From NCBI GenBank assembly GCA_963741085.1, contig CAVUGM010000006.1:565822-629821 (forward strand): a stretch of DNA of 64,000 nucleotides, read 5' to 3'. This DNA comes from an uncultured Chloroflexia bacterium. Lineage in GTDB: Bacteria; Chloroflexota; Limnocylindria; Limnocylindrales; CSP1-4. The translations under genes and the position numbers were made by a program. Under the pieces are notes generated by a model. The model was not told the origin of the DNA and did no database searches. It was given only the letters and a program-made list of their open reading frames with translations. Numbering within the stretch: the stretch's first letter is position 1; each line of letters opens with the position of its first letter. Positions 6,200 to 64,000 of this stretch are shown here, in pieces.

Positions 6200-6276
6200 C
6201 GGGGTGTGGCGCAGCTTGGTAGCGCACCTGAATGGGGTTCAGGAGGTCCCGCGTTCGAATCGCGGCACCCCGACCA
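6200..6276 (+). tRNA. tRNA-Pro (anticodon GGG)
   Basis: Manual cloverleaf: acceptor CGGGGTG/CACCCCG; D-stem GCGC/GCGC; anticodon stem CCTGA/TCAGG; loop A-T-GGG-G-T; T-arm CCGCG-TTCGAAT-CGCGG; discriminator A; encoded CCA. Confidence 0.85.
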
Positions 6277-7330: not shown

Positions 7331-8555
7331 GCCCACCCGAATACGCGGCGCCCGCGACACCCTCACCCCGCCCCCGGCTCCGCATGGGACGCCCGCTCTT
7401 CGGATGAGCTCGTCGTGCCACGGTCGGAATGGCCGAAGAGCTTTGACACGACCGCGTGAGGCTGTCACGGCGACCGGGCGACCGGGCGACCGAGGCCGCG
7501 GCGCGCTCTGGGCGCTGGTGGCGCACCTGGAGGCACGCCATATGAGCGAAAGATAGGAGTCGGGCGTCATCCGACCCGCAATGCGCGGGCGCCGTGCCCG
7601 CAGGCTACGCGACCTCGCCCGTCCGGACGTCCCGAGGGCCAGCCCAACAAACGTTGCCGAAGCTGAGGCGGCAACGGCGACGAGCGCGAGCTTGCTCAAG
7701 AGAGGGCGTCCGGGGGTGGTCTTCGGTGGTGCCTTCTGTCACCGCATGAGCCCCATGCCCAAGTACGGCCCCGCGCCCAGGGCGTAGGCTACGAAACACG
7801 AGCGGGAGGCCCAGACACGCGGTCCATTCCCCGGCCGCCGGGACCGCGCCGAGCCACTGGCGAGACCGACCCGCGGGACCTGCGTCCCATCGATTGGGGA
7901 TGGTCTCTCCAGGTGGGCCGGCTCTTCTCCTTGCCCCCGACGGATGAAGACCCTCCATGGAGCAAGCGCTGCGCGCCCGAGCCTTACAATCCAGGCGCCA
8001 GTTGTGTTCGGGGGGCTGCACGCCGGCGGCGTTGAGCCGGGCGGCCCCGCCGGGTCGCCTGGCCCCGCCTGCAAGGTGGCGAGTGCCATGACCGAGGACC
8101 AGCGGTGGCGCACCTGGGCCTCCGCGCACGACGTAATGGCCACCATGCCCGGCTGGGCCGTCGGACCGTGCGTCTACCAGGGCGTCGACGGCGCTCGTCG
8201 CGGCACGCGACTACGTAGCCCGACCTATTGAGCGGTCCGCGGAAGGCAGAGAGAATCCCGCTTGGCCCCCGGCTCCGCGCGAGCGCGCACCGCTCCCCGC
8301 CCCCACGTGGGATTGGTCGCTGCACCGGGCGTCCGGGGGCCGCTGCATTCGAGCGATCCAGGCATTGACATGCCACAGTCCGTGCGGCAGGATCCGCGTT
8401 GCACTCATCGCTTTCTAGGCGGCCCTCGCGACACTCGGCCGCACGCTCTGGGGGGAGCGTGGACGGCGTGGTGTTCCCGAGGGCCGTTCGACGTGTCGAC
8501 CATTGAGCCGACCGGAGAGATGGGCTGCGCACCGGGCGTCAGGTGGCCGTTGGCC

Positions 8556-13970: not shown

Positions 13971-14501
13971 ATGGATGTCCTCCAGGGCGACACTGGCTTC
14001 CCGACTCTGACGAGCCGACGGAAGCCACTCAGGCTTGCCCCGTCCCGCTCCAGCGTCCGCCAGGTCGCGTCGTTCGCCGCGATCGGCGTTGTCAGCACCG
14101 CCGCCTACGTCGTGCTCTACACCGCCTTCCGGCTGGCCCTCGGCGCGACCGCGTCCAACGCTCTGGCCCTGGTCATCACCGCGATCGGGAACACGGCCGC
14201 CAACCGGCGGCTCACCTTCGATGTCCGCGAGCGGGAGGGAGCCCTGCGCGACCAGGTCGGCGGGCTCGCCGCCCTCGGGGTCGCCCTCGCCATCACGACG
14301 CTGGCGGTCAACCTCCTTGGCGCAATCGCGCCCGGAGCCGGGCGCGCCGTCGAGCTCGTGGTCCTCGTCGCGGCGAACGTGCTGGCCACCATCTGCCGCT
14401 TCCTTCTCCTCCGTCACTGGATCGCCGGCCGACGCCGAGCGTCGGCGACGGGCACCCAGCCATCTGGCGCTGGGCTCGTGGTGGTGCCGGAGCGGGACTG
14501 A
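13971..14501 (+). CDS. GtrA-family membrane protein
   Basis: VRQVASFAAIGVVSTAAYVVLYTAFRL...NALALVITAIGNTAANRRLTF, four predicted TM segments. ATG at 13971. The upstream part of the long ORF is R/G-rich noise. Confidence 0.7.
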   Translation: MDVLQGDTGFPTLTSRRKPLRLAPSRSSVRQVASFAAIGVVSTAAYVVLYTAFRLALGATASNALALVITAIGNTAANRRLTFDVREREGALRDQVGGLAALGVALAITTLAVNLLGAIAPGAGRAVELVVLVAANVLATICRFLLLRHWIAGRRRASATGTQPSGAGLVVVPERD

Positions 14502-27470: not shown

Positions 27471-27546
27471 GCCCCCGTAGCTCAGTGGATAGAGCGAGGC
27501 CGTCCTAAGGCCTGCGTCGGCGGTTCGAGTCCGTCCGGGGGCGCCA
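27471..27546 (+). tRNA. tRNA-Arg (anticodon CCT)
   Basis: Manual cloverleaf: acceptor GCCCCCG/CGGGGGC; D-arm GCTC-AGTGGATA-GAGC; anticodon stem AGGCC/GGCCT with loop G-T-CCT-A-A; T-arm GGCGG-TTCGAGT-CCGTC; encoded CCA. Confidence 0.85.
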
Positions 27547-28560: not shown

Positions 28561-28995
28561 TCAGGCATTCGGCGGGGCCAGCAGGGGCCCAAGCGTCTCC
28601 ATTAGGTCCGGCGTGGTGATCGGGTCGTCTTCTGTGATCTTGCCGTTGGCAAGGCCGTAGTAGGTCAGGCCCCGGCCCGAGATCTTCTCCCCGTTGGCGA
28701 GGGTGTATTCGAAGGAGAAGCGGGCGACGACGGCATCCCCTTCGGCGATCAGGTCGGCGATCTTGAACTCACGAGCGGGTATGGCCGCAGCCATCGCAGC
28801 CAACGTCGCTTTGAAGCCCGCGACGTCCATGCCCCCCATCGCACGGTTCACGTAGTTCGGGGCAAACAGCTCGTCGATCACATCGACGTTGCCACCATCG
28901 AGTGTCTCGGTGATGAAGCGGCGGACGACGGCCTTGTTCTGCTCCGGAGACGCCACAGTGACCCCCTTCTGGGCGCAGGCGCGCCCATCCCGGAG
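28561..28995 (-). CDS. SnoaL-like / ester cyclase (NTF2-like superfamily)
   Basis: SPEQNKAVVRRFITETLDGGNVDVIDELFAPNYVN...FKATLAAMAAAIPAREFKIADLIAEGDAVVARFSFEYTL...GRGLTYYGLANGKITE. GTG start 7 nt after the AAGGGGG Shine-Dalgarno. Confidence 0.65.
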   Translation of the reverse strand, partial: LRDGRACAQKGVTVASPEQNKAVVRRFITETLDGGNVDVIDELFAPNYVNRAMGGMDVAGFKATLAAMAAAIPAREFKIADLIAEGDAVVARFSFEYTLANGEKISGRGLTYYGLANGKITEDDPITTPDLMETLGPLLAPPNA

Positions 28996-29112
28996 GGTCG
29001 GTCTCGCCATTGGCCCAGCGCGACGGTCGTGGCGACCGTATGAGGACGCCGCACTGGTTGGACCTCGCGGTCCGCTGCCACCCCCGGATCGGCGGAGTAT
29101 GCCACGGCCGTG
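28996..29112 (-). promoter_or_regulatory. Conserved structured 5'-UTR RNA motif (candidate riboswitch/cis-regulator), copy 1
   Basis: Sense (minus-strand) sequence: GGCAUACUCCGCC...GGGGG...hairpin GGACC-GCGA-GGUCC...CCAACCAGUGCGGCGUC...hairpin ACGGUCG-CCA-CGACCGU...GCUGGGCCAAUGGCGAGACCGACC, then a ~35-nt linker and the SD. It is about 90% identical to copy 2 and shares the 3' core with copies 3 and 4. Confidence 0.45.
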
Positions 29113-29394
29113 TTTCCTGTCCCAGCCCGGGTTCGCGGCCATGCGCAGCCGCCGTCATGCGCGCCTAAGCGACCTCCGAGGCACCGTTGCCGCTGGGGTC
29201 GTTCGTTACGGGCTGCGGCTCGACGCGGCTCGAAAGTTGGATAGTGTCGGCGCTACTCCTCCCGCCCCGACCAGTTGTGCGAGACACCCCTGAGCCGGAC
29301 CCACCTGGTCTGGCTCTTCCGCTGCCGGTGGGACCCGGATGTGGACCGTTGGCCGCCCGGACCTGCCCTCCTGCGCGTCCGCGAACGCCATCAG

Positions 29395-29747
29395 CTGCGC
29401 AGGACCTTCTCCAGCGCCCGGCCCTTCGCGAGCTCGTCCACGAGCTTGTCGAGGTACCGGATCCGCTGCATGAGCGGGTCCTCGATCGCCTCGACGCGCA
29501 CCCCGCAGACGACGCCCGTGATGAGCGCTGCGTTGGGGTTCAGGCGCGCCCCAGCGAAGAAGTCCGCGAAGGTCGAGCCGGCGGCGAGGTGCTGGTCCAG
29601 CTTCGGACTGGTCGTACCCGGTCAGCCAGCGGATCACCGCGTCGAGCTCGTCCCGGGTGCGGCCCTTCTTCTCGACCTTCGCGAGGTAGAGCGGGTAGAC
29701 CGAGGCCAGGGTCGTGGTGAAGATCCGGTGTCCAGTCGATCCGCTCA
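29395..29747 (-). CDS. DUF2200-family protein; frameshift near 29590
   Basis: [47 protein letters not shown]. After a 1-nt shift it continues [62 protein letters not shown]. Confidence 0.6.
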
Positions 29748-30110
29748 TCCCGGCGTCACCGCGAACCAGCGTCCCTCGGGGTCCGAGAACGCGAAGCTCC
29801 GCGTCCCGTGGTGCTCGCCCACCTCGGTCGCCTGCACCCCCCGTCCGACGAGGGTGGCGCGCGCGGCCTCGAGGTCGTCGACGTGGAAGCAGATCGACGG
29901 CGTCGCGAGGTCGAGGCCGTCCGGGTTGTCCTGCATCATCTCCAGCGGCACGAGCTGGAACGCGAACGGCTGGTCGGCGAACCCGACCTGCGCGATCGTG
30001 AAGGCGCCCACCTCGTCGCGCCGCTTCTCCACCATGCCGACCTGCTCGACCCAGAACCTGCGGCAGGCTTCCGTGTCGTTCACGTAGAGCACGACGTATC
30101 CGACCTTCAT
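29744..30110 (-). CDS. VOC-family protein (glyoxalase/bleomycin resistance/dioxygenase fold)
   Basis: 121 aa: [26 protein letters not shown]...[13 protein letters not shown]...[19 protein letters not shown]. Stop overlaps the DUF2200 start (ATGA). Confidence 0.7.
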
Positions 30111-30477
30111 GAGCGACTCCCGACAAGCTGCGGCGACGACGGCGCTGGCGCGCCCGGCTGCCAGCGATCTGCGAGAGCCTACCGCGTGTCGTGGTGAGAT
30201 GGGTCGACCTTGTCTGGCGGGCGCCTCCTGGGCGGCCCAACTGACGACGATGCGGTGCCGATGAGGTCGGCGCCGCTGGTTCGACCTCCGTTGGCCGCGG
30301 CAAGGTCACCCTGCGAGCAGGGTAGGGGAACCCAGCTCACCCGACCTCGAGGCACAGTCCAGCACGCTGCGTTGCTGCTGGGGGGTCCGAGTCCGTCCAG
30401 AAGTGCCGGGTCTCCACTGCCCGTTCGGATCCGACGTGTCGCGCCCCCCAGCCTCAGCGCGAACTACAGACTGTCGG

Positions 30478-37819: not shown

Positions 37820-38173
37820 TCAGAGTTCCGCGACCAGCTTCCCGAAGACGGCGAACTGGCGCTCGAGGCCGGCGCCGATGAATGCGCCGATGACGCCGAT
37901 GTTGTGGAGACAGAGACCGGCGCGGGCGTTGAAGCCCGTGAACTCATCGCTGCGGCGCACACGGTCGAGCTTCTCGGCCTCCCCACGAATGAGCAGGAAG
38001 CCACCCAGATCGCCCCCGTGCGGCTCCAGGAAGACTGGCTCGAAGCTCTCGATCTCACCCCGCTGCTGGAGCCCGCCGTAGTACGCGAGCACCTCGCCGA
38101 ACAGGGTCTGCGCACGCTGCTCGCGACCGACGATGGTTGGCCCCCAGCCGATGAAGATTGCGCTATCAGCCAT
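37820..38173 (-). CDS. Hypothetical small cytoplasmic protein (~117 aa), paralogue of 63601..63957
   Basis: MADSAIFIGWGPTIVGREQRAQTLFGEVLAYYGGLQQRGEIESFEPVFLEPHGGDLGGFLLIRGEAEKL..., about 45% identical to the protein at 63601..63957. Preceded by conserved RNA motif copy 2. Confidence 0.5.
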   Translation of the reverse strand: MADSAIFIGWGPTIVGREQRAQTLFGEVLAYYGGLQQRGEIESFEPVFLEPHGGDLGGFLLIRGEAEKLDRVRRSDEFTGFNARAGLCLHNIGVIGAFIGAGLERQFAVFGKLVAEL

Positions 38174-38302
38174 GCTCCACCCCCCTTGTGGAAGATCGAC
38201 TGGTCGGTCTCGCCATTGGCCCAGCACGACGGTCTGGCGACCGCATGGAGACGCCGCGCTGGTGGGAACCTTCGGCCCCGTGCCCCCTGCCGTGGGCGGA
38301 GT
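38174..38302 (-). promoter_or_regulatory. Conserved structured 5'-UTR RNA motif (candidate riboswitch/cis-regulator), copy 2
   Basis: Sense: GCAUACUCCGCCCACGGCAGGGGGCACGGGGCCGAAGGUUCCCACCAGCGCGGCGUCUCCAUGCGGUCGCCAGACCGUCGUGCUGGGCCAAUGGCGAGACCGACC-(26 nt incl. AAGGGGGG SD)-AUG. Stem changes are compensatory relative to copy 1. Confidence 0.45.
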
Positions 38303-38708
38303 ATGCGCGCGGGCGTTCTTCTTGTCCCTATGTGTGCCAGCCGGACTGGTCGCACGGCACCAACCGAATGTGAAACCCGACCCGCTCATGGTCTGCACGC
38401 GGCCCCGAAGCGGAGGGGACGTCGACTCCTCGCGCTATAGCGCACCATGCCTTGTCGACGTCGCTCGGAACGTTCACGCGACAGGCATCGGCGGGGATGG
38501 CCATGGTGTGTCGGGGCTAGCCATTCTCGCCCCGACCGACGACGATCCTCGCTACGACATGAACCAGCTCTAGCCTCGTGAAGACCTACGCGAACACGAA
38601 CGGTGCGACCTGCCGCGACATGGCGCGGGAGCCGAAGGCGTCGTTCCGAGCCGTCGCGGACCGCCACGCCGGCGCGCCTTCGTCGCCTCGGAGCCTCTGA
38701 CCCTCGTC

Positions 38709-41456: not shown

Positions 41457-41716
41457 CTGCTGACCGCGAGACGAAGAGGCGATGATCGTCCGGGGGTGAT
41501 GGCCCGACCAGCACCGGGCACCCGCATGCCATTGCGTGGTGCCTGCCGGCACCACTTTGGACGGTTTGGGACGCACGGCCCTGTCGCTCATCTCGGGTCG
41601 GAGCGTAGAAGACACCTACGGCGGAAGGCGCTGACACACGGTCCACACTCTGGTCGCCGGGACCGTGTCGAGCCACTGGCGAACCCGACCCGCCCAAGGC
41701 GTCCCTGGGAGGATCG

Positions 41717-42559
41717 ATGCGCGCCAGACTCCTGTCTCTCACGATGGCCGCCCTGCTGGCGGCCTTCGTCGCCGCTCCGGCGGGCGCCGTCACGAACGGC
41801 ACGCCCGACGGGAACAACCATCCGTATGTCGGCTTGATCATCTTCGACACGCTCGTCAACGGCGTGCCGACGCCGACGTGGCGCTGCAGTGGCGCGCTGC
41901 TCTCGCCGACTGTCGTCCTGACCGCCGCTCACTGCACCGACGGCGCGGTCGCCGCCCGGGCGTGGTTCCAGCCCGACATGACGTATACGGCGGTGCCGTA
42001 CCCGCTCTATCCATTCGGCGGCCCCGGCAGCGGAGCGTTCGAGGGCAGCCCGAACGTCTATCCCGGGTACGCGAGCCCCTTCGCCAACGGCCTGCCGGGC
42101 TTCTCCTTTGGTGACATCGGCGTCGTCGTCCTGAGCGAGCCGGTGCCCGTGAGCCAGGTGGCGGTCTACGCCAAGCTCCCGACCGCCGGGACCGTCGATG
42201 GCCTCCCGAACAAGGCGGCCCTCGACTACGTCGGGTACGGCGTCCAGTACCAGGTCCAGTCCCCGGGTGTTAAGCCGTTCGACCGGTGGGCCGGCCCTCG
42301 GATCCGCAACTACGCGCCGGGTCAGCTGGTCCCGGGGAGCTTCAAGGGCAGCGAGAACCTCATCAAGGTCACGATGAACCCGGGCGCCGGCAAGGGTGGG
42401 ACGTGCTTCGGTGACTCGGGTGGCCCCGACCTGCTCGGTGGCACGAGCACCGTGCTCGCCGTCAACTCGTTTGTCACGAACTCGAACTGCAGCGGCGTCG
42501 GCTACGACACCCGTGTCGACGTCCAAGCGCGGCTCGACTGGATCAAGTCGTTCCACTGA
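41717..42559 (+). CDS. Secreted trypsin-like serine protease (S1 family)
   Basis: Signal peptide MRARLLSLTMAALLAAFVAAPAGA; LTAAHC (His); GDIGVVVL (Asp region); CFGDSGGP (Ser). Confidence 0.8.
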   Translation: MRARLLSLTMAALLAAFVAAPAGAVTNGTPDGNNHPYVGLIIFDTLVNGVPTPTWRCSGALLSPTVVLTAAHCTDGAVAARAWFQPDMTYTAVPYPLYPFGGPGSGAFEGSPNVYPGYASPFANGLPGFSFGDIGVVVLSEPVPVSQVAVYAKLPTAGTVDGLPNKAALDYVGYGVQYQVQSPGVKPFDRWAGPRIRNYAPGQLVPGSFKGSENLIKVTMNPGAGKGGTCFGDSGGPDLLGGTSTVLAVNSFVTNSNCSGVGYDTRVDVQARLDWIKSFH

Positions 42560-61630: not shown

Positions 61631-62118
61631 CTACTGCGAGTTCTGGCCCCCGGTGGTGTAGATCGAGATGTTGCCCGACACGACCTCCCAGGCCGGGTTC
61701 ACGTTGTCGAGGAAGGTGTCCGCCGACCCACCGTCGGAGACCCGGTAATCGACGGGAAAGTCGAGGCAACCGCTCGGCGGGTTGATGATGCATTCCTCCA
61801 TGTGGAGCATGGCGCCCTGCGCCCCAGTCGGGGTCTTGAAGTAGTCGACGCTCTTCACGCTGTACTCGTGGATCTGGCCCACGTTCGGTTCGTCGACGCC
61901 GCCGGTGAGCCCATAGAGCTCCAGGTAGCCGAACTGCACCACACCCGACGTCGTCCGTACCTCGAATCGGGCGAGCCACTCCCGGCTGAGCGCGGGCTCG
62001 AAGACCTTAACGGTGCCATCCACATGCTTCGTGACGGGCGTCGTGCCGGCGCTGACGAACGGCACAGCGGCGAGGACGAAGAGCGCGATCGCTCCGACAG
62101 TGATGAGCCTCCGCATCG
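61631..62118 (-). CDS. Hypothetical secreted protein (~160 aa)
   Basis: Signal peptide MRRLITVGAIALFVLAAVPFVSA, then ...VQFGYLELYGLTGGVDEPNVGQIHEYSV...ECIINPPSGCLDFPVDYRVSDGGSADTFLDNVNPAWEV. Preceded by conserved RNA motif copy 4. Confidence 0.5.
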
Positions 62119-62200
62119 CGGAACCCTCCCTCGGGACGCATTCCTCGCGGGTCGGTCTCGCCAGTGGCTCGGCGCGGTCCCGGCGGCCGGGTTTGGACCG
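62119..62200 (-). promoter_or_regulatory. Conserved structured 5'-UTR RNA motif, copy 4 (3' core plus variant stem)
   Basis: Sense: CGCGGUCC-AAACCCGGCCGCCGGG-ACCGCG-CCGAGCCA-CUGGCGAGACCGACC-CGCGAGGAAUGCGUCCCGAGGGAGGGUUCCGCG-AUG. The 8-bp stem CGCGGUCC/GGACCGCG replaces ACGGUCG/CGACCGU of copy 1 (covariation). Confidence 0.4.
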
Positions 62201-62289
62201 CGTGTCAACGCTCCCCGTCATCAGTCACAGATGCGGCCAGGGGTCCAGGTGTCCCAGGTGCTCTATTCGGCATGGTGCCCGGAGGCAAC

Positions 62290-62654: not shown

Positions 62655-62670
62655 ACGGCAGGCGTAGAGC

Positions 62671-62744
62671 GGCCCCCGGTCGCCGGGTGCGTCCCCGCCC
62701 CGTCCCGAAGGACGGGGCGGGCGTCCCGCGCGGAGCCGGGGGCC
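62671..62744. repeat. GC-rich palindromic repeat unit R-d
   Basis: GGCCCCCGG-TCGCCGGGTGCGTCCCCG-CCCCGTCC-CGAA-GGACGGGG-CGGGCGTCCCGCGCGGAGCC-GGGGGCC. Has a 9-bp terminal stem, a central 8-bp hairpin with a GAAG/UUCG loop and two flanking G3-4/C3-4 hairpins (cloverleaf-like). Confidence 0.55.
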
Positions 62745-62886
62745 TGCCAGCCGACGAGGGGCACCCGCCCCCCACTTCGGGGCCTGGCGCCGGCCTGCCT
62801 GCATCGTGAAAGGCGCAACGTGGCGCGCAAGGGTCAACCGGGCCCCGGCCAAGCAAGCTTGGTGCGTCAACGCACCGGAACGTCAC

Positions 62887-63600: not shown

Positions 63601-63957
63601 TTAGATCAGGTCGACGATGGCCTCGTTCCAGGCGCCCATCCAGCGCACCATCCCCGCATCGACCACAGCAGTGACGACGCCGACGCCATTGAGGCAGGCG
63701 TCCGCCCGCATGGTCATACGCTGGAATTCCGGCGCCATGCTGAGGCGCCCCAGCTTCTCGGGATCGCCGCGCAGCAAGGCGAAGCCGCCAAGATCGCCCC
63801 CGTGGGAGTTCAGTTCCGCGAACTCGAAGCTCTCGATCTGGCCTGCCGTCTTGAGCCCGTTCCAGTAGGCGACGGCTTCCTCGAACACCTTGGCCGCGGC
63901 GAGTTCCTTGCCGGCGCGCTGCGAGCCCCAGCCGATGAACAATGCGTACTCGGCCAC
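63601..63957 (-). CDS. Hypothetical small cytoplasmic protein (118 aa), paralogue of 37820..38173
   Basis: (GTG)AEYALFIGWGSQRAGKELAAAKVFEEAVAYWNGLKTAGQIESFEFAELNSHGGDLGGFALLRGDPEKL..., sharing IGWG...IESFE...GGDLGGF..LRG..EKL with the 38-kb paralogue. Confidence 0.5.
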   Translation of the reverse strand: MAEYALFIGWGSQRAGKELAAAKVFEEAVAYWNGLKTAGQIESFEFAELNSHGGDLGGFALLRGDPEKLGRLSMAPEFQRMTMRADACLNGVGVVTAVVDAGMVRWMGAWNEAIVDLI

Positions 63958-64000
63958 AGCGAAATCCTCCCCGAACTCTGCTGCGGGTCGGTCTCGCCAG
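63958..64000 (-). promoter_or_regulatory. Conserved structured 5'-UTR RNA motif, copy 3 (truncated by window end)
   Basis: Sense: ...CUGGCGAGACCGACC-CGCAGCAGAGUUCGGGGAGGAUUUCGCU-GUG. The core is identical to copies 1, 2 and 4, followed by an SD-containing linker. Confidence 0.4.

Follow-up and report, generated by a model that had tools for sequence, protein, structure and literature searches.

The window analysed here, a 64,000-nucleotide stretch of a contig from an uncultured Chloroflexia bacterium (CAVUGM010000006.1, positions 565,822 to 629,821), carries six copies of a structured RNA leader, four on the minus strand and two on the plus strand. We refer to them by position as the 7.8-, 29-, 38-, 41.6-, 62- and 64-kb copies, of which the 29-kb copy is the focal one. 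The window contains five exact occurrences of the 14-mer TGGCGAGACCGACC (7858 on the plus strand; 28996, 38202, 62150 and 63986 on the minus strand), compared with a chance expectation of about 5e-4 in 128 kb by our own arithmetic, and a relative of it with two mismatches lies at 41677 on the plus strand. In five of the six copies a start codon follows 26-39 nucleotides (nt) past the end of this core (39 nt at 29 kb, 28 nt at 38 kb, 33 nt at 62 kb and 28 nt at 64 kb), with a G-rich Shine-Dalgarno (SD) sequence in between at these four sites. An earlier note, made from the DNA letters alone, had named the 29-, 38-, 62- and 64-kb sites. All four are present, each in the sense orientation of the following gene and with a G-rich SD before the start, but the plus-strand copies at 7796-7880 and 41615-41699 had been missed. 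As the note had also said, the genes behind its four sites are unrelated: they encode a SnoaL_2 protein, two members of a 117/118-amino-acid (aa) family without a Pfam match, and a 161-aa protein with a signal peptide. Its idea of a portable, structured cis-regulatory leader of the riboswitch type is supported by the present analysis.

The motif, which had been left unassigned, can be named. We searched the window with cmscan against Rfam 15 (gathering thresholds of 40 for RF03169 and 47.9 for RF03170). The 62-, 7.8- and 29-kb copies exceed the threshold for RF03169 (c-di-GMP-II-GAG), the 41.6-kb copy exceeds that for RF03170 (c-di-GMP-II-GCG), and no additional copies were found in the window at E <= 1. 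Because copies are thus assigned to known Rfam families, the outcome that the earlier note had itself named as refuting, the label 'unassigned' is refuted. Both families belong to the cyclic di-GMP (c-di-GMP) II clan, CL00127, and the clan match in the window is to these variant models, not to RF01786, the canonical c-di-GMP-II. The 41.6-kb copy alone is of the GCG type and the other five are of the GAG type. We consider it very probable that the elements are aptamers of the c-di-GMP-II clan, in its GAG and GCG variants, each positioned at the extreme 5' end of its own mRNA.

The copies share with c-di-GMP-II-GAG the exact 3' core UGGCGAGACCGACC, the loop CGGYCGCC, the helices P1, P2 (GGC/GCC) and P3, and the location in a 5' untranslated region; those at 7796-7880 and 62141-62224 cover the whole 86-nt model at 67-70 bits. 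The 41.6-kb copy matches c-di-GMP-II-GCG from end to end, with an identical fold and kink-turn, and differs from the model in its core (GGCGAACCCGACC, compared with a consensus of GGCGAGCCCGaCC). Canonical c-di-GMP-II riboswitches (Lee et al. 2010; Smith et al. 2011; summarised in PMC9495366 and PMC11477304) belong to the same clan, have an architecture of kink-turn and pseudoknot, and likewise stand before genes for surface or secreted proteins rather than before genes for the metabolism of their ligand. The elements described here differ from them in that clan competition in Rfam favours the GAG and GCG models, in that control is probably translational rather than by termination or splicing, and in that the hosts are high-GC Chloroflexota, not Clostridia.

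For comparison, one genome per species was scanned for the 3' core GCCANTGGCGAGACCGACC, which gave at least 118 stretches; all counts of relatives given below are among the matches listed. These stretches come mostly from Chloroflexota metagenome-assembled genomes (MAGs) labelled Limnocylindria, Limnocylindrales or 'uncultured Chloroflexia', and the genuine elements among them split into two groups, which we call type I and type II. In the common fold, P1 closes the domain and is followed by P2 (GGC/GCC) and then P3, with a predicted pseudoknot from loop to tail. CGGYCGCC in the loop of P3 complements GGCG-AGA-CCG in the 3' tail, so that the pairing encloses a small internal loop, and in the Rfam architecture the same P3 loop pairs with GGCGAGACCG. 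In both types the 3' tail is fixed by the search pattern; complementarity reaches 99% in type II and 91-99% in type I. The earlier note had seen that GGUCGCC could pair with GGCG-AG-ACC across a hairpin; this corresponds to the pseudoknot of the family, and 99% of cells are complementary.

Type I has the P1, P2 and P3 (about 8 bp) of the Rfam consensus and is represented in the window by the 7.8-, 41.6- and 62-kb copies. Between P2 and P3 lies a kink-turn, with GGC-NNN-GA on one strand and GA-GCC on the other, and its GA...GA nucleotides are invariant in the 84 aligned type I sequences. In this alignment 86.1% of cells are paired, compared with 28-42% when the 3' partners are slid. The copies at 7796-7880, 41615-41699 and 62141-62224 satisfy all the family features that could be examined here, including the kink-turn, whereas those at 28984-29097 and 38190-38302 fail the kink-turn feature. 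The 64-kb copy is cut by the window end. Its counterpart in stretch L117, which is 80.8% identical over the stretch, has a complete type I element (L117:4930-5022), and the 64-kb copy is probably of the kink-turn type as well.

The 29- and 38-kb copies form the type II set together with 27 others from Chloroflexota genomes of the Limnocylindria type. Type II retains P1, P2, the loop CGGUCGCC and the 3' core, lacks the GA...GA signature, and has a three-way junction in place of the kink-turn. The junction is formed with an extra hairpin between P2 and P3, P2a, which is 5-8 bp long and highly variable in sequence; P3 is longer, at 11-13 bp, and the core reads GCCA-A-UGG instead of GCCA-C-UGG. 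Both window copies show these differences from RF03169 and measure about 107 nt from P1 to P1, compared with 86 in the model. Given that the kink-turn failed and a helix was added, we rank them as a variant and not as plain members of the family.

Evidence for the type II fold comes from folding and from compensatory change. With the pseudoknot nucleotides held single-stranded, the four-helix fold is the constrained minimum free energy (MFE) structure in most type II sequences. We supplied the nested structure by hand for an alignment of 29 sequences, which was re-aligned with a covariance model (R1), and 82.0% of cells were paired, compared with 29-43% after sliding. Both-sided change was found in 23 of 36 pairs, including five of five in P2a and 10 of 11 in P3, and the observed values were reached by none of 500 shuffles; these figures are conservative, because subgroup IIb is imperfectly aligned. 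RNAalifold run on the raw MAFFT alignment of type II returned the pseudoknot helix only and did not recover the nested helices.

The earlier note had pointed to a different hairpin, just 5' of the core, as showing compensatory change. That comparison mixed non-homologous helices. The strands CGCGGUCC/GGACCGCG are P3 of the 62-kb copy, while ACGGUCG/CGACCGU in the 29-kb copy is a local alternative pairing within the P3 loop, as is the hairpin cited for the 38-kb copy. When scored as a conserved helix across 29 relatives, the local hairpin was 74.3% paired, compared with 73.1% in shuffles (144/500), and it was rejected.

Table 1. Riboswitch copies, their parts and the genes that follow them in the 64-kb window
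Feature	Position	Strand	Basis
Type I c-di-GMP-II-GAG aptamer (7.8-kb copy)	7796-7880	+	RF03169, 67.2 bits
Type II aptamer, focal (29-kb copy, copy 1)	28984-29097	-	RF03169, 43.6 bits (28986-29091); own model R1, 96.6 bits; constrained MFE four-helix fold; covariation
29-kb copy, P1	29081-29087 / 28990-28997	-	Fold
29-kb copy, P2	GGC 29077-29079 / GCC 29012-29014	-	Fold
29-kb copy, P2a	29060-29073	-	Fold
29-kb copy, P3	29045-29057 / 29015-29028	-	Fold
29-kb copy, pseudoknot	CGGUCGCC 29031-29038 with GGCGAGACCG 28999-29008	-	Complementarity
29-kb copy, promoter-like GGGACA, 16-nt spacer, CATACT, directly upstream of P1	29096-29123 (GGGACA 29118-29123, CATACT 29096-29101)	-	Sequence
29-kb copy, putative expression platform	28954-28989 (GC hairpin 28971-28986, SD AAGGGGG 28962-28968, GTG start 28954-28956)	-	Fold of 3' part alone
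SnoaL-like (NTF2-fold) 131-aa protein, after 29-kb copy	28561-28956	-	Pfam SnoaL_2, E=7.4e-18
Type II aptamer, second (38-kb copy, copy 2)	38190-38302	-	R1, 93.5 bits; RF03169, 33.3 bits; fold
38-kb copy, P1	38286-38292 / 38197-38203	-	Fold
38-kb copy, P2a	38265-38279	-	Fold
38-kb copy, P3	38252-38262 / 38221-38231	-	Fold
38-kb copy, pseudoknot	38236-38243 with 38205-38214	-	Complementarity
38-kb copy, promoter-like GGGACA and -10-like box CATACT	GGGACA 38323-38328, CATACT 38300-38305	-	Sequence
117-aa protein, uncharacterised family, after 38-kb copy	37820-38173	-	No Pfam, NCBIfam or PDB match
c-di-GMP-II-GCG-type aptamer, core GGCGAACCCGACC (41.6-kb copy)	41615-41699	+	RF03170, 71.1 bits, E=4e-11
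Secreted trypsin-like protease, after 41.6-kb copy	41717-42559	+	Pfam Trypsin, E=2e-11
Type I c-di-GMP-II-GAG aptamer, Rfam consensus (62-kb copy)	62141-62224	-	RF03169, 70.2 bits, E=5e-12; alignment and pair counts
161-aa signal-peptide protein, after 62-kb copy	61631-62116	-	No Pfam or NCBIfam match
Sixth copy (64-kb copy), only 3' core (CUGGCGAGACCGACC) inside window end	63986-64000	-	14-mer match
118-aa paralogue of the 117-aa protein, after 64-kb copy	63601-63957	-	No Pfam match

Type II elements are mostly missed by the current models: of the 18 tested in other genomes the Rfam gathering threshold detects three, and of the window's pair it detects the 29-kb copy alone. Rfam curators may already know of the variant. 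A kink-turn replaced by a junction has a reported precedent in the k-junction, said to have been described by the Lilley lab in 2014. Like a k-junction, type II would obtain a sharp bend between two helices from a three-way junction rather than from a simple kink-turn. It differs from a k-junction in that the window copies have lost the tandem G·A pairs, with a 3' strand that reads CUGG-GCC; given that this signature is gone, we regard them as ordinary three-way junctions and not as k-junctions. One relative on the plus strand, L057:124-245, has a type I core, keeps GA...GA and carries a hairpin of about 25 nt inserted in the kink-turn bulge; it resembles an intermediate of the k-junction type that links the two architectures. 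Actinomycetota MAGs (L071, L074, L112 and L116; Mycobacteriales and Nitriliruptoraceae) also have relatives that share the 3' core but contain a longer P3 insert, so that either the family extends past Chloroflexota or these bins are contaminated.

The two scaffolds also bear on whether the element could be a lineage-specific dispersed repeat, or an untranslated region duplicated together with one gene family, with no regulatory role. The density of the copies (six in 64 kb, and as many as three within a single 8-kb locus), a mean column identity of 71% and the confinement of the family mainly to Chloroflexota MAGs are what such a repeat could produce. However, the elements are nearly always in the sense orientation, a median of 28 nt before an SD-preceded start, their helices show compensatory changes, and the genes behind them belong to many unrelated families. 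Further, the leader of the 117-aa gene is of type II in the window (37820-38302, minus strand) but of type I in L103:80-544 (plus strand), where the gene is 81% identical at the nucleotide level; the scaffold was swapped before the same gene. We noticed no terminal inverted repeats or transposase beside the copies inspected, although no systematic search was made. A repeat without a function is, in our view, very improbable, and we retain the reading of the elements as aptamers that head their own mRNAs.

Support for a position at the head of a transcript comes from the DNA upstream of P1. Shortly before P1, both type II copies in the window read GGGACA-N16/17-CATACT. In 27 type II leaders aligned on P2, both window copies included, an A/T-rich hexamer (CATACT, CAGACT, GATGAT or CATCAT) lies 21-26 nt upstream of P2, and its second position is 78% A, compared with a background of about 25-30% A+T. 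A strict sigma-70 scan placed GGGACA/CATACT at both window copies below its threshold. Given that the -10-like box is kept at a fixed position, we infer that the aptamer begins within a few nt of the transcription start. By the same token, the 29-kb copy would head its own transcript and not act as an intra-operon attenuator, as the earlier note had proposed. The note had also found about 95 further nt common to the 29- and 38-kb copies, which we confirm, but the shared GCAUACUCCGCC is a -10-like promoter box with the transcript start, and lies outside the RNA fold.

Terminator scans found no intrinsic terminator in 28900-29300 or 38100-38500, and therefore control of translation is likely. 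The leaders between aptamer and start codon are just 14-50 nt long and have no U-tracts. In the scenario that we propose, a nucleotide second messenger, possibly c-di-GMP or a related signal, would bind the pseudoknot pocket and lock P1. The 3' strand of P1 (ACCC...) lies 12-40 nt from the G-rich SD and could pair with it, and the 5' strand of P1 (GGGAGG or GGGGGU) is itself SD-like, so that P1 and the SD would compete for one strand. Ligand binding would then free the SD and turn translation on; it is these two properties of the P1 strands that suggest an ON switch. When the 3' part of the focal copy is folded alone, its SD, GGGGGUC, pairs with GACCCUC (the core end and the 3' strand of P1) across a GC-rich hairpin, and the 5' strand of its P1, GGGGGU, is identical to the SD. 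A similar GC-rich hairpin before the SD was seen by eye in 11 other type IIa leaders. The proposal is in line with the class II c-di-GMP riboswitches of C. difficile, which are described as ON switches (PMC11477304). For the direction of the switch, we consider the chances of ON to be about even.

Many type I leaders contain another short motif. Of 72 type I leaders, 29 have GCGUCCC immediately 5' of the SD, at 9-18 nt from the start codon; the motif is absent from all 23 type II leaders. In the window it is found at 7882-7888 and 41699-41705 on the plus strand and at 62133-62139 on the minus strand. It co-occurs with second codons that start with CG (17/29, compared with 8/43).

Several points weigh against the reading of the elements as ligand-binding switches of the genes behind them. 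The 38-kb copy scores 33.3 bits for RF03169 (38193-38282), under the gathering threshold of 40, and its P1 contains an A·A mismatch. The loci were picked by their exact 3' core, so that any covariation in the pseudoknot is invisible. Behind the 7.8-kb copy no convincing open reading frame (ORF) was found for about 670 nt (7881-8555, plus strand; frame plot and ORFs). A literature search that did not cover the discovery paper itself found no ligand report for the GAG or GCG variants. As to the proposed competition for the SD, the duplex between the 3' strand of P1 and the SD has an energy of -9.8 kcal/mol with its own partner and -9.6 kcal/mol with permuted ones. Accessibility of the SD in type I is 0.445 with the real aptamer and 0.449 with a shuffled one, and differs slightly in type II (0.379 real, 0.420 shuffled).

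With regard to the missing gene, the matching riboswitch in the syntenic stretch L025 stands before a transaldolase-like ORF of 402 aa, and the two sequences cease to be homologous right after the aptamer. The 7.8-kb copy may be an orphan, or stand ahead of a decayed gene.

Given that the thermodynamic tests show no preference for ON, the same aptamer could have an opposite or different output. In this case the ligand would turn expression off, for example by releasing an anti-SD sequence (UCUUCC in the 38-kb linker or GCGUCCC in type I), or would act on mRNA stability. The 3' part of the 38-kb copy forms a hairpin in which CUUCCAC is paired to the SD region, and GCGUCCC abuts the SD in the type I leaders counted above. 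However, at 0-3 nt from the SD, GCGUCCC is too near to form a hairpin with it. In addition, the best partner of the SD in the focal copy is the 3' strand of P1, and the class II switches of C. difficile point to ON rather than OFF. We regard an OFF or other output as possible, if rather doubtful.

A further possibility is that the leader binds a protein, acts as a thermometer or is the target of a small RNA, and that the likeness to c-di-GMP-II is merely ancestral. RF03169 and RF03170 presumably originate from the work of Weinberg et al. (PNAS 2017), which reportedly described variants of c-di-GMP-I and -II riboswitches that 'might recognize different bacterial signaling molecules'. In the same work, the GAG and GCG binding-site nucleotides reportedly differ from those of canonical c-di-GMP-II, and this, like the absence of a ligand report from our literature search, would be compatible with a leader that has no small-molecule ligand. 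Against this, about 20 core nucleotides are near-invariant over two scaffolds while the helices covary, as is typical of a small-molecule pocket, and the elements stand at the 5' end of many unrelated mRNAs. We consider this alternative unlikely, and suspect that the elements are aptamers for a signalling nucleotide.

The genes behind the relatives are diverse. An SD-preceded ORF follows in the sense orientation at 105 of 115 sites, at a median spacing of 28 nt. Among 96 downstream proteins of the matches listed there are 86 different Pfam families, with no dominant family in most; those found most often are Polyketide_cyc2 (SRPBCC-type; eight proteins), SnoaL-like (seven), beta-helix/NosD (four) and methyltransferases (three). 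A simple signal-peptide-like pattern is present in 50 of 95 products. Genes similar to the SnoaL-type gene of the focal copy stand behind type II leaders in L022 and L107. The 117/118-aa family, for which we found 826 homologues in MAGs labelled Limnocylindrales, Thermomicrobiales, Ktedonobacterales and Gaiellaceae, has members behind both leader types. The element thus has no fixed gene association, and is not an untranslated region duplicated with the 117-aa family, a possibility that the earlier note had wished to see checked.

Given that the targets are many, unrelated and mostly secreted, a signalling regulon is a better explanation than feedback by a metabolite. The c-di-GMP riboswitches of C. 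difficile control adhesins, pili, a protease and small hypothetical proteins (PMC11477304). By analogy, the diverse and largely extracellular targets described here would fit a second-messenger regulon, as expected. Two single cases give hints of the signalling pathway: an ORF with GGDEF and HD-GYP domains (L092:670-1719, plus strand) lies immediately upstream of a type II element (L092:2279-2395), and in L069 a type I-like element precedes, by 88 nt, a class III nucleotide cyclase (L069:3441-5438, plus strand).

Some leaders recur with particular small genes or close to each other. Type IIb leaders precede secreted proteins of about 105 aa in L007, L010, L062, L063, L092, L099 and L104. These proteins have an '...AGE(I/V)TG/KG...' motif right after the signal peptide, and the one in L092 has no NCBIfam match. 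Dense arrays were seen in L019:2459-3925 and L113:2462-5081, each with three riboswitch copies in 1.5-2.6 kb, most of them before a small gene of their own.

Other features of the window can be noted briefly. tRNA-Pro(ggg) at 6200-6276 and tRNA-Arg(cct) at 27471-27546 were called by both ARAGORN and Rfam. A 93-nt tRNA-Arg(gcg) at 62657-62749 (plus strand) was called by ARAGORN only, and is probably a false positive, because the Rfam tRNA model made no call. Upstream of the focal copy, the long ORF at 29206-30309 (minus strand) includes a stretch that we take to resemble the N-terminus of DUF2200; after it the ORF turns rich in Arg and Pro, pointing to a frameshift or to frames that overlap. 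Positions 29745-30110 (minus strand) hold a glyoxalase-like gene. A weak match to CRISPR-DR20 at 14416-14451 (minus strand; 26.7 bits, threshold 42, E=0.23) is probably due to chance.

At the level of the family the finding is ordinary: an Rfam scan names the element, and half of the six copies are textbook examples of it. We tentatively suggest, at somewhat less than even confidence, that the 29- and 38-kb copies represent an undescribed structural subclass of c-di-GMP-II-GAG, mostly missed by Rfam, with a three-way junction where the kink-turn would be. Along with its kink-turn counterpart, this subclass could control an extensive regulon of small and secreted proteins in Limnocylindria from soil, through a signalling nucleotide that is maybe not c-di-GMP.

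From the perspective of riboswitch biology, uncultured Chloroflexota of soils show a great expansion of the family, which offers there a rich set of targets from which to infer the signal. This set consists mainly of secreted proteins, of SRPBCC and SnoaL folds, and of a 117-aa family without known relatives. Current covariance models under-count the c-di-GMP-II-GAG/GCG family. That one binding core is mounted on either a kink-turn or a three-way junction, in some cases before very similar genes, is a natural experiment in RNA architecture.

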